Counted from the stretch's first letter, positions 4,724-57,863 are shown. The stretch: 64,000 bases of DNA from an uncultured Actinomycetes bacterium (GCA_963746995.1 CAVVDF010000002.1:9366-73365); one strand, 5' to 3'. Translations and numbers: made by a program. The notes: generated by a model not told the origin, from the sequence alone.

Positions 4724-4745
4724 CGCATCTGCCATCCTGTCCGGC

Positions 4746-5535: not shown

Positions 5536-5537
5536 CT

Positions 5538-6752: not shown

Positions 6753-6809
6753 CGTGAACCTCCTGTGGCCGATTGCGACAGCCTACCTTCCGCACCGACC
6801 CGGAAACGC

Positions 6810-6838
6810 TGACTGGGCGCCCGAAGGGCGCCCAGTCA
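6810..6838 (-). terminator. Hairpin (terminator or 3' stabiliser) after glnA1
   Basis: Perfect 13-bp inverted repeat TGACTGGGCGCCC/GGGCGCCCAGTCA; reads as a C(UUCG)G loop on the minus strand, 20 nt past the glnA1 stop. No U-tract. Confidence 0.7.
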
Positions 6839-6857
6839 CACAGGAGATGGAGGACGG

Positions 6858-8289: not shown

Positions 8290-8355
8290 GATGTCTCCCT
8301 TCCCCTGGTCCGACGGCGACCTAGCAAGGGTAGGACCTGCTCGACACGACGTTCC

Positions 8356-8382
8356 GTTACTCGAGCGTTAACTCTCGGTTAC
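8356..8382 (-). promoter_or_regulatory. GlnR-binding direct repeats upstream of glnA1
   Basis: Minus strand GTAAC-N6-TTAAC-N6-GTAAC, three pentamers with an 11-bp period. This is the known actinobacterial GlnR box pattern, and glnR is adjacent. Confidence 0.75.
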
Positions 8383-8387
8383 AGCGG

Positions 8388-8416
8388 CAGGGCCGGCGCC
8401 GAAGGCGCCGGCCCTG
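8388..8416 (-). terminator. GC-rich hairpin between glnR and the glnA1 promoter
   Basis: Perfect 13-bp inverted repeat CAGGGCCGGCGCC/GGCGCCGGCCCTG with a C(UUCG)G loop on the minus strand. Confidence 0.65.
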
Positions 8417-8444
8417 TGTGCAGGGGGATGGGCGAAACCTGTCT

Positions 8445-8606
8445 CTCAGCGGCGGCGCCGGCGCCGGTTGCGGCGGTCCTCTCGGTTCCGCCGCGACCAG
8501 GATCCTCACCGGGTCTCGCTGCATGAACGAGGCCGAGACCGCTGCGCCGAGGGGGATAAGTCCCAGCGAGGGGAAGAGCTTCGCGGTGATGAGCCGATCC
8601 GTTCAT
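8445..8606 (-). CDS. Candidate small ORF/leader peptide with RGPP motif (needs one indel corrected; end uncertain)
   Basis: After ATG at 8606 a GC3-rich frame reads DRLITAKLFPSLGLIPLGAAVSASFMQRDPVRILVAAEPRGPPQ; RGPP codons at 8482-8471. Confidence 0.4.
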
Positions 8607-8721
8607 GGCGCAAGGCATCGACCGTGGCGCTATGGGTGCGCAGAGCCCGTCGGTGTCATTTCCGCCTGGTCGCGCCGTGCTAGGTCCGAGGTCGGTCCGG
8701 CCGGAGGGTAGGTCGAAGGGC

Positions 8722-9386
8722 TCAGTCCTCGGCGAGTCGCCCGGTAGCCGACCGAACGCACCGTCTCGATCAGGTGCTCGCGCTCGGCGCCGAGCTTGGC
8801 GCGGAGCCGCCGCACGTGCACGTCCACGGTCCGTGTACCCCCGTAGAAGTCGTAGCCCCACACCTCGCGCAGGAACGCCGGTCGGGTGTAAACGCGCCCG
8901 GCGGTGGGTCGCGAGGAACCGCAGCAGCTCGAACTCCTTGAAGGTGAGGTCGAGCGGGCGGCCGGCCGCGGCGACCTTGTAGGTGTCGACGTCGATCCGC
9001 AGGTCGCCGAGGCGAACGATCGAGCCGTCGCCGTCGCCGACCCGACGCCGAAGCATGGCCAGGCGCACGCGCAGCTCCGCCTCGGGGGCGCCCGGGTAGA
9101 CGAACTCGTCCGCGATCTCGTGCCAGGGGAATCGATCGAGATCGGCTGCGTTCCACGATCACCGCCACGGTCGCCCCAGGTTCGTCGCGCCGCAAGGTCG
9201 TCAACACGGACCAGGCTTGGCCGGGGTTCTCCGCGGCGTCCACCAGCCACAGGCTCGGGGTCAGCTCGCGCGCATGCGGCAGGGCGTCAAGGGCCAGCGG
9301 CTCGTGCTTCAGGTCCGGACGGAGCGCGTCGAGCGCGGGCAGCGCCTGCGCGGGCGAGCGATCGGAGAGCAGCAGCACACAGCCAT
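8722..9386 (-). CDS. glnR: OmpR-family nitrogen regulator GlnR (atypical receiver plus winged HTH)
   Basis: [15 protein letters not shown] and [40 protein letters not shown]; adjacent to glnA and moaD. Several indels. Confidence 0.85.
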
Positions 9387-9441
9387 AGCGACGGTCCTCA
9401 CCGTACCCGGTCGGCAGCGCCGCCGGTACCCTTGACCTGCG

Positions 9442-9679
9442 ATGACGATCCACGTGCGCCTGTTCGCCGTCCTGCGGGAGCTCGCGGGCGCGGGCGCCCT
9501 GGAGGCATCCGGGCGCACGTCGGCGACATCGCGATGCGCTGGGGGCCACGTACGGTGAGCGCTTCGCGAACGTCGCGGCCGTCTCGACGTTCGTGGTGAA
9601 CGGCGAGCGGGCGAGCCGCTCGACCGTCGTCGCGGACGGCGACGAGGTGGCGATCCTGCCCCCGGTGAGCGGCGGCTGA
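9442..9679 (+). CDS. moaD: MoaD/ThiS-family sulfur carrier
   Basis: MTIHVRLFAVLRELAG ... VNGE ... DGDEVAILPPVSGG* with C-terminal GG. Internal indels. Confidence 0.85.
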
Positions 9680-9728
9680 CCGTCGCGATCTGCACGGGTC
9701 TCGTCCGGCACCCTGGGATACTCCGCGG

Positions 9729-10645
9729 ATGCGGTTCCACCGGGTTCTCCTCGTGGTCAACCCTGTGGCGAGGACCGTCTCCAAACCCACCTTGGCCGTG
9801 ATCGAAAAGGCGCTATCCGCCGACTTCGCCCTCGAGGTCGCGGAGACCAAGGAGCAGGGCCACGCCAACGAGCTCGCAACGCAGGCCGTACACGACGGCA
9901 TCGATCTCGTGGTCGTCTTCAGCGGCGACGGCACGATCAACGAGGCGGTGAACGCCCTCGCTGGCACCGAGACCGCGCTCGCGGTGATCCCCGGCGGCGC
10001 GACCAACGTGCTCGTGCGCGGCGCTCGAGTCTGCCGACCGACCCCGTCGAGTGCACGGGCGTGCTGATCCCCAAGGCGCTCGACGACGAGGCGTTCCCGC
10101 TGCACCTCGGGCGCGCCGACGGCCGCTACTTCGCGGTCAACTGCGGCGCGGGGATCGACGCGGCTGCCATGCGCCGGCTGGAGCGGAAGTTCCCCGAGAC
10201 GAAGACGAAGTTCGACCGGGCGGCGTTCCGCGCGGTGTCGTGGGAGCTGCTCGTCGGTTACGCGGGCAAACAGCCGGACCTGTCGGTAGCGATCGACGGC
10301 GAGGACCCGATCCAAGCGCTGTCGGTGATGGTCGGGCGGACCGACCCGTACACCTTCTACAAGGAGCGCGGGCTGCGGATGACGCCGGACGCGTCGCTCG
10401 ACAAGGGCCTCGACGTCCTTTCGATCCGGAAGCTGAGCGACGGCACGTCCCGCGCATCGCCTGGCAGGTCTTCGGCTCCGCACGACACGTGCAGGGCCGG
10501 CGACATCGAGTACACGCACGACGCGTCGCACGTGGTGGTGACGGCGGCGAAGCCGTTCCCGGTGCAGGTCGACGGCGACATGCACGGGGACCACCAGCGT
10601 CTCGAGGTGGAACTCGCTCGCGAGGCGCTCTGGGTCGTCGCCTGA
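9729..10645 (+). CDS. Diacylglycerol/lipid kinase family protein
   Basis: VVNPVA, SGDGTINEAVNAL, IPGGATNV, GAGIDA, QVDGD. Confidence 0.88.
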
Positions 10646-36542: not shown

Positions 36543-37253
36543 ATGTGGCTGATCCCTCTCGTCGCGGCCGTCGTCGCGACCGTGTTCGCCGTCATGGTGT
36601 TTCGCCAATACCTCGCCCGTCGCGGGCAGGCGCAACTCATGTGGGCGATCGCGATGGCGATGTTCGCGGTCGCCTCGGCCGCCGCAGCGGTCGGCGTCGC
36701 CTCGGGGTGGTCACGACAGCTGTACGCGGTCTACTGGGCTTTCGGAGCCGTGCTGACGGTGCCGTTCCTCGCCGGTGGCGAGATCGTGCTGTTGTTCAAG
36801 CGCCGGTGGGTGGTGTGGGCGACCTGGCTCGTGCTGATCTTCTCGGTGGCGTTCACGTTCTCGGTGCTGCAGCAGGCGTCGTTCGATGCAGGAGCGCTGG
36901 CCGAACAGTTGCCGTCGGGCAAGGAGGTCTTCGGCGCCGGCACGTCGGCCCACCGACTGCCGCAGGTGTTCTCCTACCCCGCGTACGCGATCTTGGTTGC
37001 CGGCGCTCTGTGGTCCGCATGGAAGATGCGTGGGCGACCCGAGTTGCGGGATCGATTCATCGGCACCCTGCTGATCGCGGTGGGCGCGACGGTGGTGGCG
37101 GCGGGCGCGGGCTTCGCCGCCGCCGGGGTCGTGCCGGGATTCGTGACGACGCTCGTCGTGGGGATCGGCCTGATGTTCTGGGGGTTCCTGCGGGCGTCAC
37201 GTCCCGTGGTCGTCCCGGAGCTTGCGGTTCAGGCGGCCGGCCAGGCCGGCTGA
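36543..37253 (+). CDS. Multi-pass membrane protein
   Basis: Intact 236 aa with about 7 hydrophobic segments. Confidence 0.75.
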   Translation: MWLIPLVAAVVATVFAVMVFRQYLARRGQAQLMWAIAMAMFAVASAAAAVGVASGWSRQLYAVYWAFGAVLTVPFLAGGEIVLLFKRRWVVWATWLVLIFSVAFTFSVLQQASFDAGALAEQLPSGKEVFGAGTSAHRLPQVFSYPAYAILVAGALWSAWKMRGRPELRDRFIGTLLIAVGATVVAAGAGFAAAGVVPGFVTTLVVGIGLMFWGFLRASRPVVVPELAVQAAGQAG

Positions 37254-37925
37254 CCGGGCGTCGCGGGCTCGGAATCGGCGGGCTCCAGCGTCACGAGCAG
37301 CTGCACCGTGGTCTCGTCCAGCGTGAGCTCGAGCGCCACGACGCCATTCACCGGCGCGAAATCGCCGAGGTAGCTCGTGCCCGACGGACCCCACGGCCCA
37401 CAGTCGGTAGATCATGCCGCTGGGCGGCGATGCGACCCCCGTGCCCATCACGTAGGTCGCCTCGCGGTCGGGCGCCGTGACCTCGTCCGCCTCGCCGAGG
37501 TCGGTGGTCTCGGCGCCGGGCAGCGCGGCGATCGAGCGGATCTGGGCCAGGTCCGCCTGCGCGAGCGTCTGGCCCTCGCCGTCGGCCGAGGTGACCGCCA
37601 GTCCCGCGATCCCGACCAGCACCACGACGGCCGCCGCGGCAGCAACGAGCCGCGCGGGGCTCCAGCCGGCGAGACGGCGTGTCCGGCGCGGCTCGAGCTC
37701 GCCCGTCAGCCGTGGCAGGAGCATCTCGGGCGGAGCGAGCGGCGCCACCGAGACCGCCAGGTCGCCGGTCACGGCCTGGAGGTCCGTGAGGGTCGTGCGG
37801 CAGGTGGCGCAGTCCGGGACGTGCTCGGCGAGCAGGCGGTCGGCCTCCTGCGCGTCGGGACCCTCCAGCGCGCGCAGGATGTAGCCGGCGAGCAGCTCGT
37901 CGATGGCGTCGTGGTCGGCGATCAC
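37229..37925 (-). CDS. Anti-sigma factor (zf-HC2 plus RskA-like)
   Basis: HVPDCATC zinc motif, a TM segment, PPSGMIYRLW, VTLEPA. Confidence 0.85.
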
Positions 37926-38485
37926 GCGGGCGCCTCCAGGGCGACGCGCAGCTTGCGCATCGCGGCAAGGGTCCGGGTCTTCACGGTGCCGAGCGGGATC
38001 TGCAACTCCTCGGCGATCTGCACTTGGGTCTTCCCATCGAAATACGCCATCTCGAGTACCTGTCGTTGTGCGTCGGGAAGCTCGGTGAGCGCTTCGCGGA
38101 CCTCTTTGCGTCGGACCGCCAGGTAGCCGGCTTCGGCAACCTCGTCCGCTGGGTCTTCGCCAACCGCGGGCTCGAGGTTCGCCGCCTTCTCGTTGCGGGC
38201 TCGCATCCGTTGCTCCCGCCGCACGAGGTCCACACCCCGGTGGTGCACCATCGACAGGAAGAAGGTCCGGAAGGTGCCGCGGGTGTGGTCGAAGGCTTCG
38301 GGGGCGCGCCAGAGCGCCATGAAGGCGTCGTGGACGACGTCCTGCGCCAGGATCTGCTGGCCGGTGACCCGGTACGCGAGGCCGTACGCCGGGGCCGCAT
38401 ACCGGCGGTAGAGCTCGTCGAAGGCCGACCGATCGCCCGCTGCCAGCCGGCGGTGGAGTTCCAGATCCTCGGTCGGGTCCAGCAT
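37922..38485 (-). CDS. ECF sigma factor (SigK-like)
   Basis: GDRSAFDELYRRY, AQDVVHDAF..LWR, LEMAYFDGKTQ..IAEELQIPLGTVKTR. Confidence 0.9.
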   Translation of the reverse strand: MLDPTEDLELHRRLAAGDRSAFDELYRRYAAPAYGLAYRVTGQQILAQDVVHDAFMALWRAPEAFDHTRGTFRTFFLSMVHHRGVDLVRREQRMRARNEKAANLEPAVGEDPADEVAEAGYLAVRRKEVREALTELPDAQRQVLEMAYFDGKTQVQIAEELQIPLGTVKTRTLAAMRKLRVALEAPA

Positions 38486-38506
38486 CGCCCCCGTATCCTG
38501 CCAGCC

Positions 38507-38743
38507 GTGGCCACCGTCGTCCTGTACTCGCGTCCGGGCTGTCACCTCTGCGACGACGCGCGCGCCGTGATCGAGCGCGTGCGAGCGTCGACGCCCTTCG
38601 CCTTCGACGAGGTCGACATCGAGACCGACGATGCGCTTGTGCGGGACTACGGTGTCCGGATCCCGGTGGTGAGCGTGGACGGCGAGGAGCTGTTCGAGAG
38701 CTCGGTCGACGCCGCCGCCCTGCGATCGGCGGTCCGTGCATGA
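38507..38743 (+). CDS. Glutaredoxin-like protein (DUF836)
   Basis: LYSRPGCHLCDDA ... YGVRIPVV; conserved position upstream of rex. Confidence 0.88.
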   Translation: MATVVLYSRPGCHLCDDARAVIERVRASTPFAFDEVDIETDDALVRDYGVRIPVVSVDGEELFESSVDAAALRSAVRA

Positions 38744-39405
38744 GCAGCCCCCGTCAGATCCCCGACGCGACCGTGGCCCGGCTCCCGGTGTATCTGCGGG
38801 CCCTCGTGGGGCTCGTGGATGGCGACGAGACGACGGTGTCCTCCGAGACGCTCGCGGAAGCAGCCGGTGTGACCTCGGCGATGGTACGCAAGGACCTCTC
38901 CTTCCTGGGCGCGTCCGGCACGCGCGGCGTCGGATACGACGGCTGGTCCCTGATCCACGAGATCCGGGCGGAGCTCGGGCTCTCGCAGCACTGGCAGATC
39001 GTCATCGCCGGCATCGGAAATCTCGGCCAGGCGCTCGCCAACTACCGGGGCTTCACCGAGCGGGGGTTCCGCGTCGCGGCGCTTGTCGACGTCGACCCGG
39101 CGAAGCGCGGGATGCGGATCGAGGGGCTCGAGGTGGAGCCGCTTGACGCGCTGGACCGGTTGGTCCGCGAGCACGGGATCGCGATCGGGGTGATCGCGAC
39201 GCCTGCGGCCTCGGCCCAGGACGTGGCCGGGCGGATGGTGCGCGCAGGGCTTCGCTCGATCCTGAACTTCGCGCCGGCTGTCGTGACGGTGCCCGCGGGC
39301 GTGACGGTGCGCAAGGTGGATCTGGCGGTGGAGCTGCAGATCCTGGCGTACTACGAGCAGCGCAGCGCCGACGAGCGGCCGCGCGACGTCAGCGCGGGAT
39401 CGTGA
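38740..39405 (+). CDS. rex: Redox-sensing repressor Rex
   Basis: IPDATVARLPVY, VRKDLSFLG..GTRGVGY, GIGNLG, ILNFAP. Confidence 0.95.
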   Translation: MSSPRQIPDATVARLPVYLRALVGLVDGDETTVSSETLAEAAGVTSAMVRKDLSFLGASGTRGVGYDGWSLIHEIRAELGLSQHWQIVIAGIGNLGQALANYRGFTERGFRVAALVDVDPAKRGMRIEGLEVEPLDALDRLVREHGIAIGVIATPAASAQDVAGRMVRAGLRSILNFAPAVVTVPAGVTVRKVDLAVELQILAYYEQRSADERPRDVSAGS

Positions 39406-39511
39406 TCCAGATCAAGAAGGCGACGATCAGCAGCATCACCGTGAGCAGGATGAACTGCACGGCCCCTTGATCCAGGAGGGGCACGCCTTCGGCGATCAGG
39501 TGGAGCAGCAT
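39389..39511 (-). CDS. 40-aa single-TM protein, last gene of the Rieske/cytb operon
   Basis: Strong Shine-Dalgarno GAAGGAGGGG; MLLHLIAEGVPLLDQGAVQFILLTVMLLIVAFLIWITIPR*. Confidence 0.7.
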   Translation of the reverse strand: MLLHLIAEGVPLLDQGAVQFILLTVMLLIVAFLIWITIPR

Positions 39512-39526
39512 GGTTCCCCTCCTTCG

Positions 39527-40273
39527 CTATGCGGGTCCGTACCACGGCGGCGCCGTGCCGCCGATCAGGAAGTCCTTGCGAGTGCGTTCGGCTCTGTCGA
39601 GCAGCGGAATGTGCAGGATCAACAGCCCGAGCGAAACCAACAGGAAGATCACCGAGTAGTGCCACACTTGGCCGCTCGCGTAGTGCAGCGTGACGGTGGT
39701 GCTCGGACCACCACCGCTGAAGTGCGCCTGCGCGACCGCGATCTTGTTGCCGTCGGCGTCGGTGGTCAGACGGAGATCGTCCACGACGAACTGCGTCGGC
39801 TGGATCGAATCGAAGGCCAGTGGATCCTGGCCGAGAGCGATGTTCGACTGTTTGGCGAGGTACGTCTGGATCGCTCCCTGGGCTGCCTGGACGTCGGCGG
39901 CTTGGGCCGGGTCTGACGTATCCGGCTCGGGGAGTTCCCCGCTCGGGTAGGAGGCGAACTCGTCGTGGACGGCGCCCGGGTCCAGCCCCGCCGCGTCGAC
40001 CACCCACGCAGGATCCGGCCCGCGCGGGCCGAGGTTGGTCGGTGTGGACGGCCCCTGGGACCAGAACCCGAACAGCCACAGCGACGACTGGATCGTCATC
40101 CATCCGAAGAACGCGACCGCCACGACCAGGTAGCCCATCCAGCGACCGAAGACGGCCGCCAGGATCATGTACACGGTGCCGACGAACAGGATGAACGCGG
40201 CGATCACGACGCCCGCGCCCTTCCACAGGACGCCGCAGTCCACCGCGAACGAGAGACAGGAATGCGTTTCCAT
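39527..40273 (-). CDS. Uncharacterised membrane protein in the Rieske/cytb operon
   Basis: Intact 248 aa: two N-terminal TMs, a soluble domain and a C-terminal TM; abuts the cytochrome c gene. Confidence 0.75.
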   Translation of the reverse strand: METHSCLSFAVDCGVLWKGAGVVIAAFILFVGTVYMILAAVFGRWMGYLVVAVAFFGWMTIQSSLWLFGFWSQGPSTPTNLGPRGPDPAWVVDAAGLDPGAVHDEFASYPSGELPEPDTSDPAQAADVQAAQGAIQTYLAKQSNIALGQDPLAFDSIQPTQFVVDDLRLTTDADGNKIAVAQAHFSGGGPSTTVTLHYASGQVWHYSVIFLLVSLGLLILHIPLLDRAERTRKDFLIGGTAPPWYGPA

Positions 40274-41000
40274 CTACGGGTCCCTCGGGTTGGTGCGTCG
40301 CCGCCGCAAGCGCCGCGTCGGCCGCATCCTTGTTCAGGCACACGTTGTCCTCGAAGGGGACGTTCTCTTCGCTCAGCTGAACCAGATACAACACGATGTC
40401 GTTGATCTGCTGATCATCGAGTGCGCCGGCGTAGCGGATGCTCCACGACGGCATCGCGTTCCTGCCTTCGGAGATCACCTGGAAGATGTCATCCACGCTG
40501 TAGATGGAGGGGTGTCCGTACTTCGCGCCACCGCAGATCGTGGTCAGGTTCGGCGGGTTGGCGACGATCGGGTTGCCGTTCGCGTCGAGCGCGTTGATGG
40601 CGCCGCCCTTCAGCTCGTTGCCGTGGCAGCGCACGCACCCGACCCCCAGCTGGTTCTCCTCGGTGAAGGGATGGACGGCCTTCTCGCCACGAGCGATCGA
40701 CTCGGTCTTGAGCGCCTCTTCTTGACCGAGGTTCCGTCCGGGCTCGAGCAGCCACTGCACCGGGAACCAAAGGACCATGAACGCGACCAGCACGACACCC
40801 CAGCCCTGGAGCTTCAACAACTGCGGGGTCTCGAGCGCTTGATCGGACGGGCCCGGGCTCATCGTCGCGGGCACCTCCGGCTTGCGCCCTTTCGACCGGT
40901 GCCGCAGGGCGAACAGCGCGAGGAACAGGAAGAACAGGATCGCGCCGAAGACGACGAGCGACGCGCCCGCGAGGTTCGTCTCAGCCAGCATGCCGTCCAC
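40274..41000 (-). CDS. Membrane-anchored monoheme cytochrome c
   Basis: Two TMs, one CVRCH motif, distal AMPSW Met; indel near the 3' end. Confidence 0.85.
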
Positions 41001-41711
41001 TCAGCCCGTCGCCACGCAGAAGGGCCCCTCTTGGGGCTGATCGGTCGTGTTGGTACCGCGGGGCGGGCCCAGCTTTATCGTGGAGGTGTCGACGATCACG
41101 TTGCCGTCGACCACCTCGACCGGGAAACGGTCGAGGCCGCGCGGCGCGGGGCCGAGCTTGTACTCGCCGGCCTGGTTGTACTTCGAGCCGTGGCACGGGC
41201 ACTCGAACCATTGCGAGGATTGGCAGAACGGTACCCGGCAGCCGAGGTGCACGCACCGCTGGTACAGCGGCATGATGCCCTCGGTGGTGACGCCCTCCTC
41301 GGGGTAGTTCGCCTGACCGGTCCCGGGGGTGCCGTCCCATGGCACGACGTACAGCCGGCCCTGTCCCACGTACACGTAGGAGTTCTCGTCGATCTGCGCC
41401 TTGATGTCCCCGAGCGGGCCCGCGTTGATCTTCGAGCCGAATCCACCCTTGAGGTTCGGCCACAAGAACCCGATCGTGCCCAGCCCGAACTCGGCGCCGA
41501 ACAGCATGACCGACGACAAGAGCGCTCGGCGCTGGAAGTCGCGGCGGCTGATCGCGCTGGTCGCCTTGGCCGGCGCCTCGCCCGCGGCCGCGCGCTTCGC
41601 GGCGGCGTTCCGGCGCGCATAGCCGGTGATGAAGTAGATGAGGAACACATCCGCGAGGACGACCGCGATGATGATCGCGAGGGTGCCGTTCGTGATCGCC
41701 AGCACGCTCAC
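41001..41711 (-). CDS. Rieske 2Fe-2S subunit
   Basis: Tat-like SRRDF, CVHLGC and CPCHGSKY, GPAPRGLDRF. Confidence 0.93.
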   Translation of the reverse strand: MSVLAITNGTLAIIIAVVLADVFLIYFITGYARRNAAAKRAAAGEAPAKATSAISRRDFQRRALLSSVMLFGAEFGLGTIGFLWPNLKGGFGSKINAGPLGDIKAQIDENSYVYVGQGRLYVVPWDGTPGTGQANYPEEGVTTEGIMPLYQRCVHLGCRVPFCQSSQWFECPCHGSKYNQAGEYKLGPAPRGLDRFPVEVVDGNVIVDTSTIKLGPPRGTNTTDQPQEGPFCVATG

Positions 41712-42547
41712 AGCTCGAAGAACACCCCCTGCGCCCACGGCCACACCCAGTTGTACCCGGGGCCTCGGAAGAACGAGCCGATGATCGTCAGGACCGCACC
41801 GAACATGAACAGCATGGTGAACAGGATGATCGCGACCTTGCGGTCACCCGGCTTGTTGCTCGCGTTGCGGTCCATGTAGGGGATCGCGGCCAGCCCCACC
41901 AAGATGAAGGTCGGGATCGTGATGCCCGCGACCATCGGGTGGAAGTAGCGCAGCAGCTCCTGCAGCCCGAGGAAGTACCAAGGCGCCTTCGACGGGTTCG
42001 GCGTGAGGTTCGGGTTCGCCAACTCCCGCAGCGGCGCGTTGACGAACGCCGAGAACACGAGCATCCCGACGAACAGGATCAGCATCGCGATGAACTCCTC
42101 CAGCAGGAGATGCGGCCACGTGTGCACGCGGTCGCCCTGCTCGCGCTCGACGCGCTGGATCCCCTCGGGCGGCACGAGCGCCAGCAATCGGTGCTTGTCC
42201 GCCGCGCCCTTCTTCGGGGTCGGGAGGTTGCCGGTGGGCAGCGGGGCCTCGCGTCGTGCGGCGGTGATCGGTGCGGCGGCGACGGCGACAGCGGCCCCGC
42301 CACCGGCAGCGGCGGCGGCCGGCGCGGCGTCGGCGACCGGCGCGGCAGCGGGCGCGGCAGTGGTCTCGGCGGTGCGCGCCTGCGCGGCGTGGGCAGCGGC
42401 CTCGTCCGGGTGCGCGGCGCGGTAGGCCCGAACCGCCTTGGAGCGCGCGCGGCCCTCGGCGATCCGAGCATCGGTCCCCGCGCCCTTCTCGGCGTCGAGC
42501 GCCTGCTGGTAGGTGTCGAGGTCCTTGTTGGTTTCTTCCCAGCTCAT
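41708..42547 (-). CDS. Cytochrome b C-terminal subunit (subunit IV/PetD-like) with Ala-rich N-terminal extension
   Basis: TWPHLL, ANPNLTPNPSKAPWYFLGLQELL, AIPYMDRN; three TMs. Confidence 0.85.
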   Translation of the reverse strand: MSWEETNKDLDTYQQALDAEKGAGTDARIAEGRARSKAVRAYRAAHPDEAAAHAAQARTAETTAAPAAAPVADAAPAAAAAGGGAAVAVAAAPITAARREAPLPTGNLPTPKKGAADKHRLLALVPPEGIQRVEREQGDRVHTWPHLLLEEFIAMLILFVGMLVFSAFVNAPLRELANPNLTPNPSKAPWYFLGLQELLRYFHPMVAGITIPTFILVGLAAIPYMDRNASNKPGDRKVAIILFTMLFMFGAVLTIIGSFFRGPGYNWVWPWAQGVFFEL

Positions 42548-42555
42548 ACGCGCTC

Positions 42556-43308
42556 CTACAGCGGCCCCGAGATGCCGCCGTCCTTGCGGATCCGCCAGAA
42601 GTGCACCGCGATGAACAGCACCGCCACGAACGGCAGCGCGATCACGTGCAGCACGTACCACCGCAACAGCGTGCTCGGCGACACGATCGCCCCGCCCAAC
42701 AGCAGGAAGTTCGCTTGCTTCGCGATGAACGGCGAGTATCCGGCCAGCGAGGTTCCGACCGTGACCGCCCAGATCGCGAGCTGGTCCCACGGCAGTAGGT
42801 AGCCGGTGAAGGACAGCCCGAGTGTGAGGAACAACAGCACGACCCCGACCACCCAGTTGAACTCGCGTGGGGGCTTGTACGCACCCGTGTAGAACACGCG
42901 CGCCATGTGCAGTGTCACCGACAGCACCATCAGGTGCGCGCCCCATCGGTGCAAGTTGCGCATCAGGTCGCCGAAGAACACCGACGTGCGGATGATCTGC
43001 ATATCGGTGTAGGCCTGCGCGCCACCGATGTCGGCCATCGGCCGGTAGAAGAACATCAGGAAGATCCCGGTGATGGTCAGCAGGATGAACAGGAAGAATG
43101 AGATCCCACCGAGGCAGAACGTGTAGGTCAGTTTGAGCCCGTGGCGCTTCACCTTGGTGGGGTGCAGGTGCCACAGCACGTTGTTCATCGTGGCGAGCGC
43201 TCGGTCGCGCGAGGTGTCCTTGTAGCCCTTGCGGTAGATCGAGCCCGGCCGGAAGATCGACTTCCAGACCTCCGATTCCCGCAGGTTCGGCGGTTTCACC
43301 TTCGCCAC
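42556..43308 (-). CDS. Cytochrome b6-like N-terminal subunit
   Basis: TFCLGG, TGIFLMFFY, RNLHRWGAH..HMARVF, FTGYLLPWDQ, LHV...HFWRIRK..ISGPL. Confidence 0.93.
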   Translation of the reverse strand: MAKVKPPNLRESEVWKSIFRPGSIYRKGYKDTSRDRALATMNNVLWHLHPTKVKRHGLKLTYTFCLGGISFFLFILLTITGIFLMFFYRPMADIGGAQAYTDMQIIRTSVFFGDLMRNLHRWGAHLMVLSVTLHMARVFYTGAYKPPREFNWVVGVVLLFLTLGLSFTGYLLPWDQLAIWAVTVGTSLAGYSPFIAKQANFLLLGGAIVSPSTLLRWYVLHVIALPFVAVLFIAVHFWRIRKDGGISGPL

Positions 43309-43335
43309 GTTCCGGTCGTCTCCTCGTTCCGGTCG

Positions 43336-43731
43336 CTAGGCCGACTCGGCCTGCGACGCCGGGACCTCTGCCATCGCGCGCTTGCCGCCCGAACCCTCAG
43401 GCAGTCGCGCATAGTACAGCGTGTCGGTCGGGCACCGCTCGACGCACACCGAACAGCGTGTGCACGCCGTGTCGTCCACGACGAACAAGGCGTTCGCACC
43501 GCGAACCTCGGCCGCGACCGCTTCCTCGCCGCTTTCCTCGACGATGTCGGTCGACATCATCCAGATGCAGTTCCACGGGCAGACGTCCTCGCACGCGCGG
43601 CACAGGATGCAGTTGTCCGGGTCGAGCATCAAGTGCTTCGGCGACTTGACGCCTTGGGTGAGCCACGCCGCATCGACCGTCTCGACGACGTAGTCGTCGT
43701 GGATGTCGACCTCGGTCTTCGTGAAGGGCAT
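43336..43731 (-). CDS. 2x[4Fe-4S] ferredoxin
   Basis: CILCRACEDVCP and CTRCSVCVERCP. Confidence 0.9.
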   Translation of the reverse strand: MPFTKTEVDIHDDYVVETVDAAWLTQGVKSPKHLMLDPDNCILCRACEDVCPWNCIWMMSTDIVEESGEEAVAAEVRGANALFVVDDTACTRCSVCVERCPTDTLYYARLPEGSGGKRAMAEVPASQAESA

Positions 43732-43732
43732 G

Positions 43733-44164
43733 CTACCGATACCCACCGCTCGGGCGCGCGCCGGCGTCGCCGCCGCGGAGCTTCTTGCGCCAGTTCTGCA
43801 TCGAGGTTGAGACCACGATGATCAGGATGAACGGGAGCGTCGTGAGCCCCATCGCGATCGCGTCACGCACCATGATGTAGCCGTAGCTCGACAGCGGATC
43901 GGTGAGACTCGTGCCGAACGGCTGTCGCAGGAACGCCTCAACGTCGGTTGGACCAGCCCAGCCGATCTTCTGCTCGGCGAAGTACATCCAGAACGAGGGC
44001 ATGATCGAGGTCGAGATCAGCATGAAGAAGACGAGCGCGAGCGAGAACAGCACGGCGCTCGTCCAGGTCCACTCGAAGGCCTTGAGGAACGCCTCGGTCG
44101 AGCCCTTCAGGCCGGCCGCGCGCTGTTTCGTTCGTGACTTGGTCGCGACGTCGATCTGGCTCAT
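43733..44164 (-). CDS. Two-TM membrane protein, first gene of the Rieske/cytb operon
   Basis: Intact 143 aa; stop 1 nt before the ferredoxin start. Confidence 0.7.
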   Translation of the reverse strand: MSQIDVATKSRTKQRAAGLKGSTEAFLKAFEWTWTSAVLFSLALVFFMLISTSIMPSFWMYFAEQKIGWAGPTDVEAFLRQPFGTSLTDPLSSYGYIMVRDAIAMGLTTLPFILIIVVSTSMQNWRKKLRGGDAGARPSGGYR

Positions 44165-44372: not shown

Positions 44373-45101
44373 ATGATCGCCGATGCGAGCAGTCAACTGT
44401 CCCAGTGGTGGGGCCCGGCGTTGGCGTTCCTCGCAGGGCTGGTCTCGTTCGCGAGTCCGTGCGTCCTGCCGCTCGTGCCGGGATACCTCTCCTTCGTGCT
44501 CGGAGAGCACGCCGTCGACGAACCCGAACGCCGGACCGACGTGTGGCCGATCCTGTTGTTCATCGCTGGGTTCACCCTCGTGTTCGTCCTGCTCGGGGCG
44601 TTCGCGCACGAGGTCGTCCGTCTGCTGAAAGGGCACGTGGGCCAGTTGATCGCCGGGGGCATCGTGATCGCGCTCGGGGCATTGATGATCGCCTACGGAC
44701 TCGGGCGGGGTTCGATCGCGCTGTACGAGGACCGGCGTCCCTTCCTGCGGAGGGTCAAGCCTGGCGTGGTGGGCGCGTTCCCGCTGGGGATGGCGTTCGC
44801 CGCCGGATGGACGCCGTGCATCGGCCCGGTGCTCGGGGCGATCCTGCTGATCGCCGCGTCGGGATCGGCTGGCCGCGGCGCGTTCCTGATGATGTGCTAC
44901 TCGTTGGGGCTGGGCGTGCCATTCCTCATGATCGGCCTTGGGGCGCAGTGGCTCACGGGCACGGTTGCGTGGCTCCGACGCCACTACGAGGCGATCGCCG
45001 TGGTGTCCGGCGGCGTCCTGGTCGTCGTGGGGTGGCTGATCGCGACCGGCCGATTCACGCGGTTGATCGCGCCGCTCACCCGCTACGCACCGGGCCTGTG
45101 A
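44373..45101 (+). CDS. ccdA: Cytochrome c biogenesis protein CcdA
   Basis: [14 protein letters not shown] and [12 protein letters not shown]. Confidence 0.92.
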
Positions 45102-45140: not shown

Positions 45141-46780
45141 ATGTCCCCTCCCGACGGCTCTCGCCCTCCGGCGTCCTCGTGGCGGCGCTCGACGGCGCTC
45201 GTGTGGCGCTCGTTGCGGTCGATGCGGACAGCGATCGTGTTGCTCCTGCTGCTCGCCGCGGCCTCGGTCGTCGGGTCGCTGCTGCCGCAGATCCCGAACA
45301 GCCCTCGCCGTGTGCAGGCGTATCAGATCGATCATCCGCTTCTGGGGCGGCGCGTTCCGGGCGATCGGCGCGTTCGACGTTTTCGGCTCGTGGTGGTTCG
45401 CGCTGATCACCGCGTTGCTCGTGATCTCGCTGGTCGCCTGTTTGCTCCCGCGGTCGCGCGCGTTGTGGCGTGCGGCCCGGGCCCGCCCGATCCAGGCGCG
45501 CGAGTTGGACTCGTTCCCCGGGTTCGCCGAGCTGTCGAGTCCAGTCCGAGCCCTCGGAGGCGATCGCGGCTGCCCGACGTACCCTGCGGCGCAAGCGCTT
45601 CCGTGTCGAGCTGGCGCCCGACGGCACGGGCGTGGCCGCCGAGAAGGGGTCGCTGCGCGAACTCGGCAGCCTGGCGTTCCACTGGGCGTTCCTGCTGCTG
45701 CTCGCCGCGGTGATCGTCGGCAAGGGCACCGGGTACGTCGGTCATGCGACCGTCGTGGAAGGCACCACCTGGACCGACGCCCGGCTCAACTACGACGGTG
45801 ATGTGCGGACGGGACGATTCTTCGGTGGGGAGTTCTCGGGGACGTCGATCACGCTGCTCGACTACCAGGACGCGTTCCGGGAAACAGGCGTCCCGATGGA
45901 CTTCCATTCCGACGTGCACCTGTCGACCGCGGACGGCTCGGCGACCGCCGATGCGACGGTGCGCGTGAACCACCCCGTGGTCTTCAACGGGATCCGCATC
46001 TACCAATTCGGGTTCGGGTGGGCGGCGATGGTCAGGATCGAGCAGGGCGGCCGCGTGCTCTTCGACGGGCCGGTCGTGATGGGCCAGGAGACGCCTCCGG
46101 GTGCCAACCCGCTCGCGCAGCCGTGGGCCGGCGTCGTCAAGCTGTCGACGCTGCGGCCGCAGGTGGCGATCGTGCTCGAGCTGTTCCCCAGCCTCGAGGC
46201 ATACGTACGGTCGCTGACGACCGGTGTGCCGCAGCCGATGACCGATGCCAGCGCGCCGTTCCTGAGCTATCAGCTGTGGGAAGGGCGGATCGTCGACAAC
46301 TCGCTCTCGGGCGTGGACGAGCGCTACATGCACCAAACCGCCTCGGGCGGTGTCGGCCAGGGGTGGACGGTCGATGTGCGGCGAGGGTGCGTGGTCGGCG
46401 GGCTCGACGAGAACCTGCCGAAGCAACTCGCGGGCATCGCCTGTCCCGACGGCGGCGGCCCGGGCTCGCTCACTCTCGCGTTCCCAGCCCTTCGCCAATA
46501 CTCCGTCCTGCAGGTGTCCCACGACGCGACCGTCGGCTGGGTGCTTGCGGCGGCTATCCTCATCGTTCTGGGGTTGCTGCCCGCGCTGTACGTCTCGCGG
46601 CGAAAGGTCTGGGTCCGCGCGCGGCCCGGGAGCGCTGGCGGCACCGATCTCCAGGTGGGAGGGTTCGCGTTGCAGCGCCAAGACCGGTTCGACGAAGAGT
46701 TCGCGGCGCTGGTCGACGCGATCGAGCGGGCCGCGGGAGGCGCCCGCGACGACGCCCGCGAGGAGGTGACATCGCCGTGA
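45141..46780 (+). CDS. resB: Cytochrome c biogenesis protein ResB
   Basis: LRSMRTAIVLLLLLA..SVVGSLLPQ, FDVFGSWWF, GSLAFH, VNHP, RRKVWVR. Confidence 0.88.
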
Positions 46781-47745
46781 GCACCGCCGATCTGGCGCGC
46801 CTGTCCTCAGACTGTTCAACGTGGCGCTGTTCGCCTACATCGCGGCGATGGTGGTGTCGTTCGCGTACCTCGCGTTCCGTCGGGACGGGATGCACACCGC
46901 CGCCACCGTGTCGGCGTCGTCGGCCTCGTGGCCAACGCGGTGTCGATCGTGACCGCGGGGACTCGCGGCCAGAGCGAACGCCCTGGGGCAACATGTACGA
47001 GTACTCGTCGCTGCTGACGTTCCTGATGGTGCTCGGGTACCTGTGGATCGTGGAGTGGCGCGCCAAGGTGCGGACCGTCGGCGGGTTCGTCTATGGCCTC
47101 GCCGTGCTCACGATGGCGATGGCGGTGTCCTTCTTCTACGTCGGACCGACGGCACTGATGCCGGCGCTCAACTCGTATTGGCGGCAGATCCACGTGACCT
47201 CGATGATCGTGGCGTCGTCGCTGCTCGGGATCGGGTGCCTGTTCACCGATCGTGTACCTCGTCAAGCAGTGGTCGGAGCGGCGCGGCGCTCGCGTCGCTC
47301 GCGCGCCCAGGAGCCGCCGCCGATCATGGGCGGGTCGGTCGACGCGGATCCATCGGCACCGCCGGACTACGTCGCGGGCGGCCGACGAGCCGGTCGGGGA
47401 ACGCCGAGCCGAGCGGACGCCGGATCGCGTCTGCCGCCCTCGGCCACACTGGACGCGCTCGCGTACCGCTTCATCCGGTTCGGGTTCCCCGTGTGGACCT
47501 TCGGCGTGATCTGCGGCGCGATCTGGGCCCAGCAGACCTGGGGTCGCTACTGGGGGTGGGACCCGAAGGAGACGTGGTCGTTCATCACCTGGGTGATCTT
47601 CGCCGGGTACCTGCACGCGCGCGCGACCGCGGGGTGGAAGGGCACGCGCGCGGCGGTCGTCGCCCTCATCGGATTCGTCTCGCTGCTCATCACGTACTAC
47701 GCCGTGAACCTCTGGATCGCCGGACTGCACACGTACGCGACATGA
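46777..47745 (+). CDS. ccsA: Cytochrome c biogenesis heme-handling protein (CcsA/ResC)
   Basis: PWGNMYE, PALNSYW..IHV, WGRYWGWDPKETW, GLHTYA. Confidence 0.92.
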   Translation: MSTADLARLSSDCSTWRCSPTSRRWWCRSRTSRSVGTGCTPPPPCRRRRPRGQRGVDRDRGDSRPERTPWGNMYEYSSLLTFLMVLGYLWIVEWRAKVRTVGGFVYGLAVLTMAMAVSFFYVGPTALMPALNSYWRQIHVTSMIVASSLLGIGCLFTDRVPRQAVVGAARRSRRSRAQEPPPIMGGSVDADPSAPPDYVAGGRRAGRGTPSRADAGSRLPPSATLDALAYRFIRFGFPVWTFGVICGAIWAQQTWGRYWGWDPKETWSFITWVIFAGYLHARATAGWKGTRAAVVALIGFVSLLITYYAVNLWIAGLHTYAT

Positions 47746-47836: not shown

Positions 47837-48975
47837 ATGAGGGGCAACGTGCGCAAGAAGATGCTGTGGGTCGGCGGGCTGCTGCTGGCCACGCTCCTGC
47901 TCGCCGCATGCCGTTCGGATCTGCCCCAGAACACCTTCGACCCCGCCGGGCCCGACGGCGCAGTCCGAGAAGGACGTCTTGATGGTGCCGCTCGCCATCG
48001 CGGGGCTGATCTTCCTGTTCGTCGAGGGCGGGATCGTCTACCTCGCCGTCAAGTTCCGGCACCGCAAGGGCAAGGAGCGGATGCCCAAGCAGCTGCACGG
48101 CAACACGCGCCTCGAGATCGGCTGGACGATCGTGCCGGCCGTCTTGCTGGCGATCGTCGATCGTGCCGGCTATTTCGCTGATCTGGAAGCTCGACCGCAT
48201 CCCGCCGGACTCGATGCAGATCAAGGTGCAGGGCTATCAGTGGTGGTGGGGGTTCCAGTACCTGGACGAGGGCATGCAGGTGGACTACGGCGACCGAGGT
48301 CCGATCACCGTCGCCGACGTGCTGGTGATCCCGACGAATACGACGATCAACCTGCAGCTCGCGTCGGAGGGCGGCGGCGCGCACGACGACGAGGGCAACC
48401 CCGATCACATGGTGATCCACTCGTTCTGGGCGCCGCGCTTGTTCGGCAAGCAGGACGTCGTGCCGGGTCTCGAGGCCAGGACAACCACATCGTGTTCTCG
48501 GCCTGGGAGCCGGGCACCTACTTCGGGCAATGCGCGGAGTTCTGCGGCCTGCAGCACGGCCTGATGAAGTTCCGGATCCTCGCGCTCGATCCGACCGACT
48601 GGCAGGCGTGGGTGGCGAGCCACAAGCAGCCGGCGGCGACCCCGACCGACGCCGCTCGCGAAACAGGGGATGGATCTGTTCCTCGGGGACCAACGGCGAG
48701 GGCGGCGGTGCATCGCGTGCCACGCGGTCGGCGGCAACCGACGCCGCGGCGACCGCCGGCGCCGAACCTGACGCAGTTCGCCGACGCCCTCGCACCAGTG
48801 CTTCGCCGGCTGCGACTTCGAGACGTTCAACTCCGACGGAACGCCGAACGTCGACGCGCTGTCTGCGTGGTTACGCGACCCGAACGCCGTGAAGATGGGC
48901 GCGAAGATGCCCAACTACCATCTGACCGACGAGCAGATCGATGCGCTCGTCGCCTACCTGTACACCCTGACGTAG
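47837..48975 (+). CDS. ctaC: Cytochrome c oxidase subunit II with fused cytochrome c (caa3-type)
   Basis: Lipobox LAAC, HGNTRLEIGWT, GYQWWW, VIHSFW, GQCAEFCGLQHGLM (CuA), CIACH and KMPNY. Confidence 0.9.
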
Positions 48976-48991
48976 GAGCGTGAGCGAACCG

Positions 48992-50871
<1,880 letters not shown>

Positions 50872-50873
50872 CG

Positions 50874-51489
50874 ATGGCCGACGCGACCAACGAGCTCGTG
50901 CACGCCGAGCACGAGACGTCGACCGGGCTCCGGTCGACGAAGCTCGCGATGTGGCTGTTCCTCGCGTCGGAGTGCATGCTCTTCGGCGGGCTGATCACGC
51001 GCGTACGTCCTCTACCGGGGCGCGAGCCTCAAGGCGCCGTATCCGCGAAGACGTCTTCGACATCGGCTACACGTCGGTGTCGTCGTTCGTCCTGCTCGCG
51101 AGCTCGCTGACGATGGTGCTCGCCCACAACGCGGCGCTCGACAGCGACTATCCCGCGGATGCGGCTGTGGCTGCTCGGCACCGCGATGCTGGGCCTGACC
51201 TTCGTCGGCGGCCAGGTGTTCGAGTTCACGACCTTCTACCGCGAGGGCCTGTCGCTCACGACGAACCTGTTCGGCACGACGTTCTACGTGCTGACCGGGT
51301 TCCACGGCGTCCACGTCACCGTCGGCATCCTGATGCTGCTGATCCTGGTGGTGATGTCGTGGCGCGGCTCGCTCTCGGACGAACCGGCGTTCCCCGTCGA
51401 GATGGTCGGGCTGTACTGGCACTTCGTCGACATCGTCTGGATCGTGATCTTCACGGTCGTCTACCTGATCCCGACGCCCGCAGAAGTGA
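50874..51489 (+). CDS. ctaE: Cytochrome c oxidase subunit III
   Basis: [33 protein letters not shown]. Confidence 0.92.
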
Positions 51490-51497
51490 GGTGCGGG

Positions 51498-51843
51498 ATG
51501 GCGACCGAGCGAGCACGGACGAGCGCCCGCAGCGCTGCCCGGCCCGTGCACCACGCGAGTACCACCCCTCGAGCGCAGGGAGTACGTCCGGGTCGGGCTG
51601 ATCCTCGTCGCGCTTCACGTGCCTCGAGGTGTGGCTGAGCTACTCGTCGCTCGCGGGCGCGAAGCTGGTCGGCGCGCTGCTTCGTCGTGCACGCTGATCA
51701 AGTTCGTCGATGGTGGTCGGTGCTTCATGCATCTGAAGTTCGACAACGGGCGGTTCTCGCGGATGTTCGCGCTCGGGTGCGATCGGCGCGTTCACGCTGT
51801 ACGTGGTCGTGCTGCTCATCTTCGGGGTCGTGGGGGACGCTGA
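51498..51843 (+). CDS. Cytochrome c oxidase subunit IV family
   Basis: EYVRVGLIL..T.LEV, IKF..V...FMHLKFD; follows subunit III; heavily indel-ridden. Confidence 0.75.
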
Positions 51844-57351: not shown

Positions 57352-57851
57352 CCGACGGATGTCGAGATCGTGCGGCGGATGTTCCGCGACGTGCCGACGT
57401 GCCGCATCGCGACGGTTCGCCCCGACGGTGGCCCGCACGTCGCCGCCCCGGTGGTTCGTGTGGCTCGACGACGCGATCTGGGTCGCGACCCGGGTGGGCG
57501 GACGAACCCTGGGAGAACGCGCTGCGCGATCCTCGCGTGAGCGTGGTGATCGACCGAGGCCGGGACTGGCTCGAGCTGTCGGGCGCCCGGATCGACGGGG
57601 TCGCCGAGCTGATGCCGGCCGAGCATCCGGACCTGCGTGCCCCGATGTCGGCCTGGCACGAGAAGTACCGTTCGATGCTCGCCGGCGAGGGTTTCGAGCG
57701 CTTCACGCGGGCGATCCCGACGCTGGGGTTCCTGCGGATCGTTCCCGCGGTCGTGGCCACGTGGGACCACCGCGCCGCTACCAGACGGCCGGGACGTCCG
57801 GCGGCCGCGCCTGCGCCGACGCCCGGACCGCGCGGTACCCTGAGCTTGTGA
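57348..57851 (+). CDS. Pyridoxamine-5'-phosphate-oxidase-like (split-barrel flavin/F420) protein
   Basis: IATVRPDGGPHV.P.WFVW, N.LRDPRVSVVID.G, EKY, TWDH. Confidence 0.8.
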   Translation: MTDGCRDRAADVPRRADVPHRDGSPRRWPARRRPGGSCGSTTRSGSRPGWADEPWENALRDPRVSVVIDRGRDWLELSGARIDGVAELMPAEHPDLRAPMSAWHEKYRSMLAGEGFERFTRAIPTLGFLRIVPAVVATWDHRAATRRPGRPAAAPAPTPGPRGTLSL

Positions 57852-57863
57852 AACATTTCACGA
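57846..57863. promoter_or_regulatory. Rex operator
   Basis: TTGTGAAACATTTCACGA versus consensus TTGTGAA-N4-TTCACAA (one mismatch); about 40 nt upstream of the menJ-nuo genes. Confidence 0.8.

Follow-up and report, generated by a model that had tools for sequence, protein, structure and literature searches.

Gene composition of the operon

The stretch of DNA analysed here (hereafter the window; 64,000 nucleotides from an uncultured Actinomycetes bacterium, GCA_963746995.1 CAVVDF010000002.1:9366-73365) carries a compact operon encoding a split Rieske/cytochrome b complex together with a dicluster ferredoxin. The window has a G+C content of about 70%, and its source assembly consists of 12 contigs and is 78% complete. 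Calling of open reading frames (ORFs) on the window fills positions 39389-44164 with eight minus-strand ORFs, g1 to g8 (Table 1). The intergenic junctions are gaps of 0-27 nt or overlaps: the genes of g1 and the ferredoxin meet at TAG-C-ATG, those of cytochrome b6 and subunit IV are separated by 8 nt, those of subunit IV and the Rieske protein overlap by 37 nt, and the junctions on either side of the cytochrome c gene read TGA-GTG (with the Rieske gene) and TAG-ATG (with g7). Pfam and NCBIfam models name five of the eight products, namely the ferredoxin, cytochrome b, subunit IV, the Rieske protein and a class I cytochrome c. The remaining three, g1, g7 and g8, match no Pfam or NCBIfam family; hydropathy predicts two, three and one membrane helices in them, respectively. 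ORFs, Pfam matches and hydropathy thus confirm the eight tightly packed minus-strand genes, with products and coordinates, that a sequence-only reading of the window had put forward.

Cytochrome b6 (g3) is composed of a basic N-terminal extension and a core that resembles the cytochrome b6 of b6f complexes. Its closest match in the PDB is the b6 subunit of 6rqf (157 bits), to which only residues 62-250 align. The four haem-ligand histidines, H120, H134, H221 and H236, are invariant in 39 sequences and align to the ligands of 6rqf b6; the histidines of helix D are 14 residues apart, as in solved cytochrome b6. In the TFCLGG segment, C65, L66, G67 and G68 are likewise invariant in 39 sequences, and Cys65 of this CxGG motif is the predicted site of covalent haem ci attachment. 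The adjacent PF00033 and PF00032 ORFs and the 6rqf alignment therefore bear out the split cytochrome b, the TFCLGG cysteine and the helix-D spacing already read from the DNA.

The extension (residues 1-61) has an isoelectric point (pI) of 10.8 and contains 14 lysines or arginines and three histidines. Sixteen of its positions are invariant in 39 sequences from ferredoxin-type operons: R20, P21, G22, S23, G28, R34, R36, N42, H47, L48, H49, P50, K52, K54, R55 and H56. After the addition of eight sequences from the NAD(P)-type operons described below, S17, R34, R36, H47 and P50 are still invariant. A joint cytochrome b profile searched against 1.84 billion cluster representatives gave 1,644 matches at E<=1e-30. 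Among the best 150 of these, to which the analysis was confined, His47 is kept in 117 of the 119 representatives that cover the extension. The CxGG motif is present in 28 of the 119, and His49 tracks it, occurring in 27 of the 28 representatives with CxGG versus 46 of the 91 without. The APWY motif lies in the same chain in 38 of the 66 long representatives analysed from this set, and by this motif we place the family provisionally in the APWY clade of cytochromes b.

Subunit IV (g4) contains a cytoplasmic N-terminal extension of about 140 residues, Ala/Pro-rich in part. Its Qo motif reads APWY and not PEWY, as had been noticed from the sequence; A188, P189, W190 and Y191 are invariant in 37 sequences, and APWY is found in 43 of 43 relatives. 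The cluster-binding boxes of the Rieske protein (g5) read CVHLGC and CPCHGSKY, the second box carrying the serine and tyrosine of high-potential Rieske proteins. C[PG]CHGSxY is present in 42 of the 43 relatives and the Tat-like [ST]RRxF in 34. The top PDB matches of g5 are 9rk4 (53 bits), with the identical box CPCHGSKY, and 9rk3, with CPCHGSGF, followed by Rieske proteins of b6f complexes. The PDB titles of 9rk4 and 9rk3 give no organism, but the entries are probably two Rieske proteins of anammox bacteria, judging by the fit of their Ser/Tyr and Ser/Phe signatures: the available part of a 2025 paper reports +303 mV for Kuste4569 (Ser/Tyr) and +335 mV for Kustd1480 (Ser/Phe) (PMC12954380). 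By its box residues, g5 is probably a high-potential Rieske protein as well.

The ferredoxin (g2) is an acidic protein (pI 4.3) whose sequence contains neither an export signal nor a Tat motif. Its start was placed at ATG 43731 and not at GTG 43746, because the homologues are 131 residues long. Two CxxCxxCxxxCP motifs are separated by a 38-residue spacer, and all eight of their cysteines are invariant in 41 sequences; conservation extends beyond the cluster core to an N-terminal DY...VD..WL segment. The nearest PDB neighbours in sequence and fold are FwdF polyferredoxin, PscB, NdhI and NuoI, and the fold is that of a generic dicluster ferredoxin. Candidate fusions of ferredoxin to cytochrome b were rejected: all 21 longer ferredoxin matches, the four with a cytochrome b domain included, are frameshift read-throughs in error-prone assemblies. 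A complex prediction with two copies of cytochrome b6, two of subunit IV (residues 112-279) and the ferredoxin, run without controls, gave ipSAE values of 0.00 and 0.01 and a mark of 0.32, and is evidence neither way.

The two-helix membrane protein g1 ends in a tail in which G140, G141 and Y142 are invariant in 16 sequences. A protein-atlas look-up returned only clusters of "hypothetical protein" from Actinomycetota. Tails of the form ...GGY[RK], ...KGY[ML][SP]GK or ...[YF]GRPL... are kept in all families. In the families with the ...[YF]GRPL... tail, the ferredoxin itself ends in ...GYxYGxR[WL] (ferredoxin C-termini of loci L048-L058), and it is possible that the C-termini of g1 and the ferredoxin share an aromatic/basic plug motif.

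The cytochrome c (g6) contains a single CxxCH haem motif. In other families the protein is often dihaem, with two CxxCH motifs in 21 of 40 ORFs from relatives and one in the rest. The g6 frame in the window has no stop codon and stays open to 39351 across g7 and g8, for about 300 codons. Third-position GC changes frame near 40300, and the stop codon TAG at 40274-40276 is out of frame. In 15 of 17 relatives checked, the end of g6 is near the ATG that starts g7, with ...DPRDP* immediately ahead of that ATG in the four nearest relatives; one of the two exceptions, L019, carries a frameshift of its own. The corresponding NPRDP* ending of the window lies one frame over from g6, which points to a single surplus base at about 40292-40295. 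At 40295, a contig from a public sequencing run that is roughly 95% alike has one base fewer; the contigs from four public runs cover 39900-41100 in part.

The extra base is most likely an assembly indel, because other essential genes are broken in the same manner, related genomes are too, and the base lies five codons from the stop. Within 47979-51638, cox2 turns to out-of-frame text after about 60 residues, and cox1 is a 159-residue fragment covering profile positions 229-363. The menA gene is in three pieces (G000:C1:13930-14639). Such single-base breaks fit an error-prone long-read assembly and explain a completeness of 78% despite only 12 contigs. Frame breaks also occur in other few-contig, low-completeness assemblies of the genus (L019 and L021). 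All other genes of the operon are intact, with high third-position GC.

The AlphaFold2 model of g7 has a predicted local distance difference test (pLDDT) value of 87. Foldseek against the PDB found nothing at E<=0.001, a wide VIA-align search matched helical hairpins only (best Z 8.1), and a protein-atlas look-up returned hypothetical clusters only. An apparent fusion of cytochrome c to g7 in L019 is a frameshift, and the topology argument based on it was dropped for that reason. The g8 peptide was found by tblastn in 10 of 17 full loci from the same taxonomic order and in many of the best 80 named loci of the species scan described below.

Conservation, paralogous operon and genomic neighbourhood

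The arrangement g1-ferredoxin-b6 is present in 19 of 19 loci from eight families of the same taxonomic order, and subunit IV, the Rieske protein, cytochrome c and g7 are found in all 17 same-order loci that are long enough. A ferredoxin match at E<=1e-8 occurs in 148 of 301 genomes drawn from the phylum, a tally that includes flagged unpublished genomes and some unspecific matches near 1e-10. Loci with full-length matches were drawn from more than 20 families of the phylum; in 26 of 26, the gene immediately after the ferredoxin is cytochrome b6, and subunit IV, the Rieske protein and cytochrome c come next where the DNA continues; a weak-match control locus, L061, contains no cytochrome b. In a scan of one genome per species, which gave 517 relatives, the best 80 were examined: b6 follows the ferredoxin in all 75 named loci with room for it, and the other five end within 152 nt.

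With a profile built from 16 relatives, g1 is detected immediately ahead of the ferredoxin gene in all 125 of 125 loci, a count in which a few loci are the same contig twice and the 16 profile builders match by construction. Of the 87 loci whose DNA extends 4.2 kb or more past cytochrome b, 86 match a g7 profile; none of 10 NAD(P)-type operons does. The co-conservation of the ferredoxin and the membrane genes with cytochrome b, on which the sequence-only reading depended, is borne out by these counts, and the cluster is far from a chance arrangement because its order is conserved across the phylum.

The named records are all metagenome-assembled. The nearer ones are labelled Actinomycetota only, and the distant ones Euzebya, Egicoccus, Nitriliruptoraceae, Egibacteraceae and Acidimicrobiia. 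One 2010-bp contig (L107, CAYFXO010000169.1), binned as "uncultured Methanomassiliicoccales archaeon", carries ccdA-g1-ferredoxin-b6 with 72% identity to the window, most likely because an actinobacterial contig was mis-binned.

Another contig of the same genome bears a paralogous Rieske/cytochrome b operon (L034; G000:C6:72000-86000, at about 3700-10350). Its first ORF, of about 700 residues, contains, according to Pfam, dihydropyrimidine-dehydrogenase-type 4Fe-4S, pyridine-nucleotide/FAD and C-terminal dicluster domains. The product is NfnB/GltD-like, with PDB matches to NfnA 9n5u (299 bits), 9bov/9bp5 (286 bits) and GltD. The C-terminal dicluster domain is 45% identical to g2 over 73 residues (E 3e-18). 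The L034 cytochrome b is 49% identical to g3 and lacks the CxGG cysteine; the next genes encode a 169-residue APWY subunit IV, a Rieske protein, a monohaem cytochrome c and tandem sulfocyanin-like cupredoxin domains. The gene order of L034 is shared by nine of nine further loci, and the NAD(P)-type paralogues without CxGG keep the dicluster domain. Ferredoxin g2 is best read as a free-standing version of the iron-sulfur module that bears the NAD(P) site in the sister complex.

Three side observations concern these NAD(P)-type loci. The cupredoxin repeats occur four to five times in L062 and L065, and the repeats of L034 are therefore not an assembly artefact. Weak g1-like ORFs (profile E 1e-4 to 6e-3; Table 1) lie directly upstream of the NAD(P) oxidoreductase genes, and the two-helix partner may belong to both types of complex. 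In L069 (G135:C43:1-2663), an NAD(P)-oxidoreductase gene is joined to a cytochrome b of the CxGG type (...FLHLHPVRVKRH...YTFCLG), an arrangement which indicates that module types and the haem ci motif recombine.

Divergent genes for cytochrome c maturation flank the start of the operon (Table 1) and are followed by genes of an aa3-type oxidase (Pfam COX2_TM, COX1 and COX3) and then by nuo genes. CcdA, ResB and ResC adjoin the operon in most of the 80 named loci. Downstream, the convergent rex gene is present in same-order loci and also in L128 and L141. No Rex operator was found at the operon start: the operator TTGTGAANNNNTTCACAA, with up to three mismatches, matches the window only at 1856 and 57846, and a promoter scan likewise found none. 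The latter site, at 57846-57863, is a near-perfect Rex-operator-like palindrome, TTGTGAAACATTTCACGA, with one mismatch (0.15 expected by chance at up to three mismatches), and lies upstream of nuo genes (NuoC/D at 60149, NuoF at 62187). Between rex and a gene for a 236-residue membrane protein, minus-strand positions 37197-38545 hold an ORF for a sigma factor of the ECF type (37922-38545) and, after it, a probable anti-sigma ORF.

The 78%-complete genome contains only two cytochrome b genes, neither of the QcrB type. It also contains menA-like fragments, and the futalosine-pathway family PF02621 has no match in it. An index of public sequencing runs returned no RNA run among its matches, all 17 rows of which share at most 0.10 of words.

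Table 1 Features of the operon and its surroundings (window positions unless a locus is named)
Feature	Positions	Strand	Description
g1, two-helix membrane protein, 143 aa	43733-44164	-	ORF; no family; pI 9.9; tail ...RPSGGYR
g2, cytoplasmic 2[4Fe-4S] ferredoxin, 131 aa	43336-43731	-	Fer4, 48.5 bits
g3, cytochrome b6, 250 aa	42556-43308	-	PF00033, 144 bits; four haem-ligand His; CxGG
g4, subunit IV, 279 aa	41708-42547	-	PF00032, 36 bits; three predicted helices; Qo motif APWY
g5, Rieske [2Fe-2S] protein, 247 aa	41001-41744	-	PF00355, 34 bits; N-terminal helix and Tat-like SRRDF
g6, membrane-anchored monohaem class I cytochrome c	40274-40991	-	PF13442, 30 bits, and PF00034; two N-terminal helices; CVRCH
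g7, membrane protein, 248 aa	39527-40273	-	Three helices around a soluble domain of ~135 residues; acidic; no family
g8, single-helix peptide, 40 aa	39389-39511	-	LLDQGxxQF motif; ribosome-binding site GAAGGAGG
rex, redox-sensing repressor	38740-39405	+	Pfam Put_DNA-bind_N and CoA_binding; convergent, 3' end overlaps g8 by 17 nt
ccdA	44373-45101	+	Pfam DsbD_TM; divergent from the operon, not part of it
resB	45470-46780	+	Pfam ResB; divergent cytochrome c maturation gene
resC/ccsA	46816-47745	+	Pfam Cytochrom_C_asm; divergent cytochrome c maturation gene
Weak g1-like ORF in L034	~10064-10288	-	
Weak g1-like ORF in L062	1154-1423		
Weak g1-like ORF in L066	1124-1399		

Proposed role of the complex

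We propose, with moderate confidence, that the operon encodes a split, b6-type complex III (a menaquinol:cytochrome c oxidoreductase) of the APWY clade, with the ferredoxin as a cytoplasmic subunit. The simplest reading is a complex III that feeds the aa3 oxidase and has an added cytoplasmic electron port. The complex III role is argued from the adjoining ccdA-resB-resC and aa3 oxidase genes and from a genome without a QcrB-type cytochrome b. From knowledge of the family, quinol would be oxidised at a Qo site built by cytochrome b6, subunit IV and the probably high-potential Rieske protein. The Rieske protein would hand the first electron to the membrane-anchored cytochrome c, which would deliver it to the aa3 oxidase of the adjacent genes. 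The second would traverse the membrane by way of haems bp and bn and arrive at haem ci, on its cytoplasmic side.

The acidic ferredoxin is the putative fixed cytoplasmic subunit of this complex. It probably sits on the basic N-terminal extension of b6, perhaps aided by the always-present g1: the pI of 10.8 and the 16 invariant positions of the extension, set beside a ferredoxin of pI 4.3 without an export signal, argue for a docking-like surface. The ferredoxin would link the bn/ci end of the complex to low-potential carriers in the cell, as a stand-alone form of the iron-sulfur "foot" that bears an NAD(P) oxidoreductase in L034 and in anammox bacteria. Electrons may flow either into the quinone pool (ferredoxin:menaquinone reductase) or out of it (quinol-driven ferredoxin reduction), and g7 and g8 would be further membrane subunits.

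Several points weigh against this proposal. Gene order and conservation are what ties the ferredoxin to the complex, and a soluble carrier or assembly factor expressed together with it would equally account for the co-conservation and the translational coupling. The search for fusions of ferredoxin to cytochrome b yielded frameshift artefacts and no genuine case. The high potential of the Rieske protein is predicted from two residues. The assembled cytochrome c gene has a broken reading frame, and a genome that is 78% complete leaves room for another or alternative complex III. Finally, APWY complexes may run in reverse, as proposed in the available text of Kao & Hunte (PMC4122944).

The ferredoxin might be a soluble protein that is co-made with the complex, either a diffusible carrier or a maturation factor for haem ci or iron-sulfur clusters, and the complex an ordinary b6c-type complex III. 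We consider this rather unlikely. The generic dicluster fold and a tie to the complex through gene order and conservation would suit such a protein; haem ci maturation factors are not known outside phototrophs. A soluble carrier is, however, hard to reconcile with L034, where a dicluster domain at the same operon position is fused to a large oxidoreductase, which points to a docking module. The NAD(P)-type paralogues keep the dicluster domain although they lack CxGG, which argues against a role in haem ci maturation, and the DY...VD..WL segment of g2 is conserved beyond what the clusters occupy.

It is also conceivable, though we find it somewhat less probable again, that the complex normally runs in reverse or is a bifurcating or confurcating device, and not a respiratory complex III. 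In the reversed or confurcating mode, high-potential donors and low-potential cytoplasmic donors would together reduce menaquinone; in the bifurcating mode, oxidation of quinol by a +300 mV Rieske protein would push the second electron up to ferredoxin. The Ser/Tyr signature in 42 of 43 relatives and the NAD(P)-linked paralogue in the same genome are consistent with such modes. According to the accessible portions of the two papers, the APWY motif and a distinct Rieske class have been proposed to mark reverse operation (PMC4122944), and the anammox relatives, with Rieske potentials above +300 mV, to reduce NAD(P)+ (PMC12954380). The position of the operon beside cytochrome c maturation and aa3 oxidase genes speaks against these modes, however, as do the failure to find another bc-type complex in the 78%-complete genome that could feed the aa3 oxidase and the retention of a quinone-reducing site with haem ci. 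That the locus is decaying or non-functional, its cytochrome c frame lost, is very improbable: the g6 frame does run without a stop for 300 codons into the next genes, but the other genes are intact with high third-position GC, the single-base shift lies five codons before the normal stop, similar breaks affect cox1, cox2 and menA as well as L019 and L021, and a related contig lacks the extra base.

The proposed complex III with a ferredoxin subunit can be extended by analogy with the anammox complexes. In the available text, AlphaFold3 models of these complexes propose an extra b haem on the dimer axis, bound by His43 or His62 and leading to a chain of iron-sulfur clusters (PMC12954380). His47 is a good candidate for the equivalent of this histidine. 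We speculate that, as in those models, the two b6 subunits may use their His47 residues to hold a b-type haem between them, on the dimer axis and at the cytoplasmic side, and that the added haem may wire haems bn and ci of both monomers to the bound ferredoxin. If a high-potential Rieske protein oxidises menaquinol, the second electron would be strongly reducing, and with a Rieske potential of about +300 mV the Qo site would act as a quinone-based electron bifurcator. Taken together, as hallmarks of the APWY clade, the extra haem, the wiring of the ferredoxin and the bifurcation at Qo make an unlikely combination. If it were true, aerobic soil Actinomycetota could use the quinone pool as a direct source of reduced ferredoxin, or as a sink for it, and the paralogue would play the equivalent part for NAD(P)H.

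Comparison with known systems

The window complex shares with cytochrome b6f (PetB/PetD/PetC) the split cytochrome b, the CxGG motif, the 14-residue spacing, the C-terminal ...GISGPL and the type of Rieske box. It differs from b6f in its Qo motif (APWY, where b6f has PEWY), in the use of a class I cytochrome c in place of cytochrome f, in its non-phototrophic host, in a conserved g3 N-terminus that is 30 residues longer, and in the ferredoxin gene of the operon. Pfam and NCBIfam gave no matches to PetG, PetL, PetM or PetN among the operon products. The b6c complexes of Firmicutes (Bacillus/Geobacillus QcrABC and heliobacterial PetABCD) are menaquinol:cytochrome c reductases of the b6 type with haem ci, non-photosynthetic or linked to type I; they carry PDWY or PEWY, and their cytochrome c is fused to subunit IV or is a dihaem protein. 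We know of no ferredoxin gene in these operons. The NCBIfam model "cytochrome b6" (PRK03735) scores 200 bits on the window, under its cut-off of 325.

The canonical actinobacterial QcrCAB (bcc) complex belongs to the same phylum and presumably does the same job of feeding an aa3 oxidase, and the extra N-terminal helix and Tat-like motif of its Rieske protein are points of likeness. It has an unsplit eight-helix QcrB and a dihaem QcrC, unlike the window. The NCBIfam models of QcrB, QcrA and QcrC score 109, 32 and 13 bits, all below their cut-offs of 500, 275 and 200, in agreement with the earlier assignment of the complex to the b6 type and not to QcrCAB. Geobacter ExtOPQ (GSU2933/2932/3620) likewise contains a b6-type cytochrome b, and the NCBIfam models score 289 bits for ExtP (cut-off 290) and 59 bits for ExtQ (cut-off 150). 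The Geobacter cluster encodes multihaem cytochromes and a porin and no ferredoxin (PMC5877670); partner genes of these multihaem and porin types are absent from the window.

The window operon belongs, by its motifs, to the APWY clade. Split APWY cytochromes b were described by Kao & Hunte (2014) in the deep Actinobacteria Rubrobacter, Patulibacter, Conexibacter and Ilumatobacter, with the remark that "none ... characterized" (PMC4122944, text available in part). The available text covers cytochrome b and the Rieske protein, contains the word "ferredoxin" once, and has no ferredoxin subunit, g1, g7 or N-terminal histidine. In this source the deep actinobacterial proteins are known from surveys only, which upholds the claim that the subunit set is uncharacterised. 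A literature search, with subscription journals and supplements outside it, found no paper in which an actinobacterial Rieske/cytochrome b complex has a ferredoxin subunit; the ferredoxin-only form, the two-helix partner, g7/g8 and the clade-wide N-terminal histidine are not described in the literature found. In the available part of their paper, Dibrova et al. (2017) report oxidoreductase genes like that of L034 next to short cytochromes b "in many other cases" and call the anammox type "subfamily G" (PMC5600118).

A further close likeness is to the complexes of the anammox bacterium Kuenenia stuttgartiensis (Kuste4569-4574 and Kustd1480-1485). They likewise contain a b6-like four-helix cytochrome b with subunit IV and a cytoplasmic iron-sulfur module encoded in the operon, and their Rieske proteins are probably 9rk4 and 9rk3, the solved proteins nearest to g5. 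The available text on these complexes relates the anammox subunit structurally to 9bp5 and 5t5i and proposes that the complexes drive NAD(P)+ reduction (PMC12954380); both entries were also matched here. The L034 paralogue, with its full NfnB-like NAD(P) oxidoreductase, has the architecture described for anammox bacteria. The window operon, in contrast, carries only the 131-residue dicluster part without the FAD/NAD(P) domain. Its cytochrome c is monohaem, whereas the anammox proteins are hexa- or octahaem, and its subunit IV has three predicted helices, compared with five. Proteins g1, g7 and g8 are additional, and the context is aerobic.

Complex III is among the best-studied bioenergetic enzymes, and it has long been asked, in connection with cyclic electron flow, whether b6-type complexes exchange electrons with ferredoxin at haem ci. 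The conserved ferredoxin of the operon suggests a side-door for electrons on the inward-facing side of this central respiratory enzyme. A ferredoxin in the operon, a two-helix partner and a docking-like extension are spread over numerous families of Actinomycetota that are abundant in soil, marine and saline habitats, and some of these families have cultured members. The split APWY cytochromes b of deep Actinobacteria and the NAD(P)-linked complexes of anammox bacteria were already known; new here are the NAD(P)-oxidoreductase paralogue, the conserved basic b6 extension with His47 and the probable nearness of the Rieske protein to the two anammox ones. The sequence-only reading had contained neither the paralogue, nor the extension, nor the frameshift in the cytochrome c gene. 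The ferredoxin operon and its NAD(P) sister operon form a natural pair, in aerobes, for testing ideas that have been proposed only for the hard-to-grow anammox bacteria.

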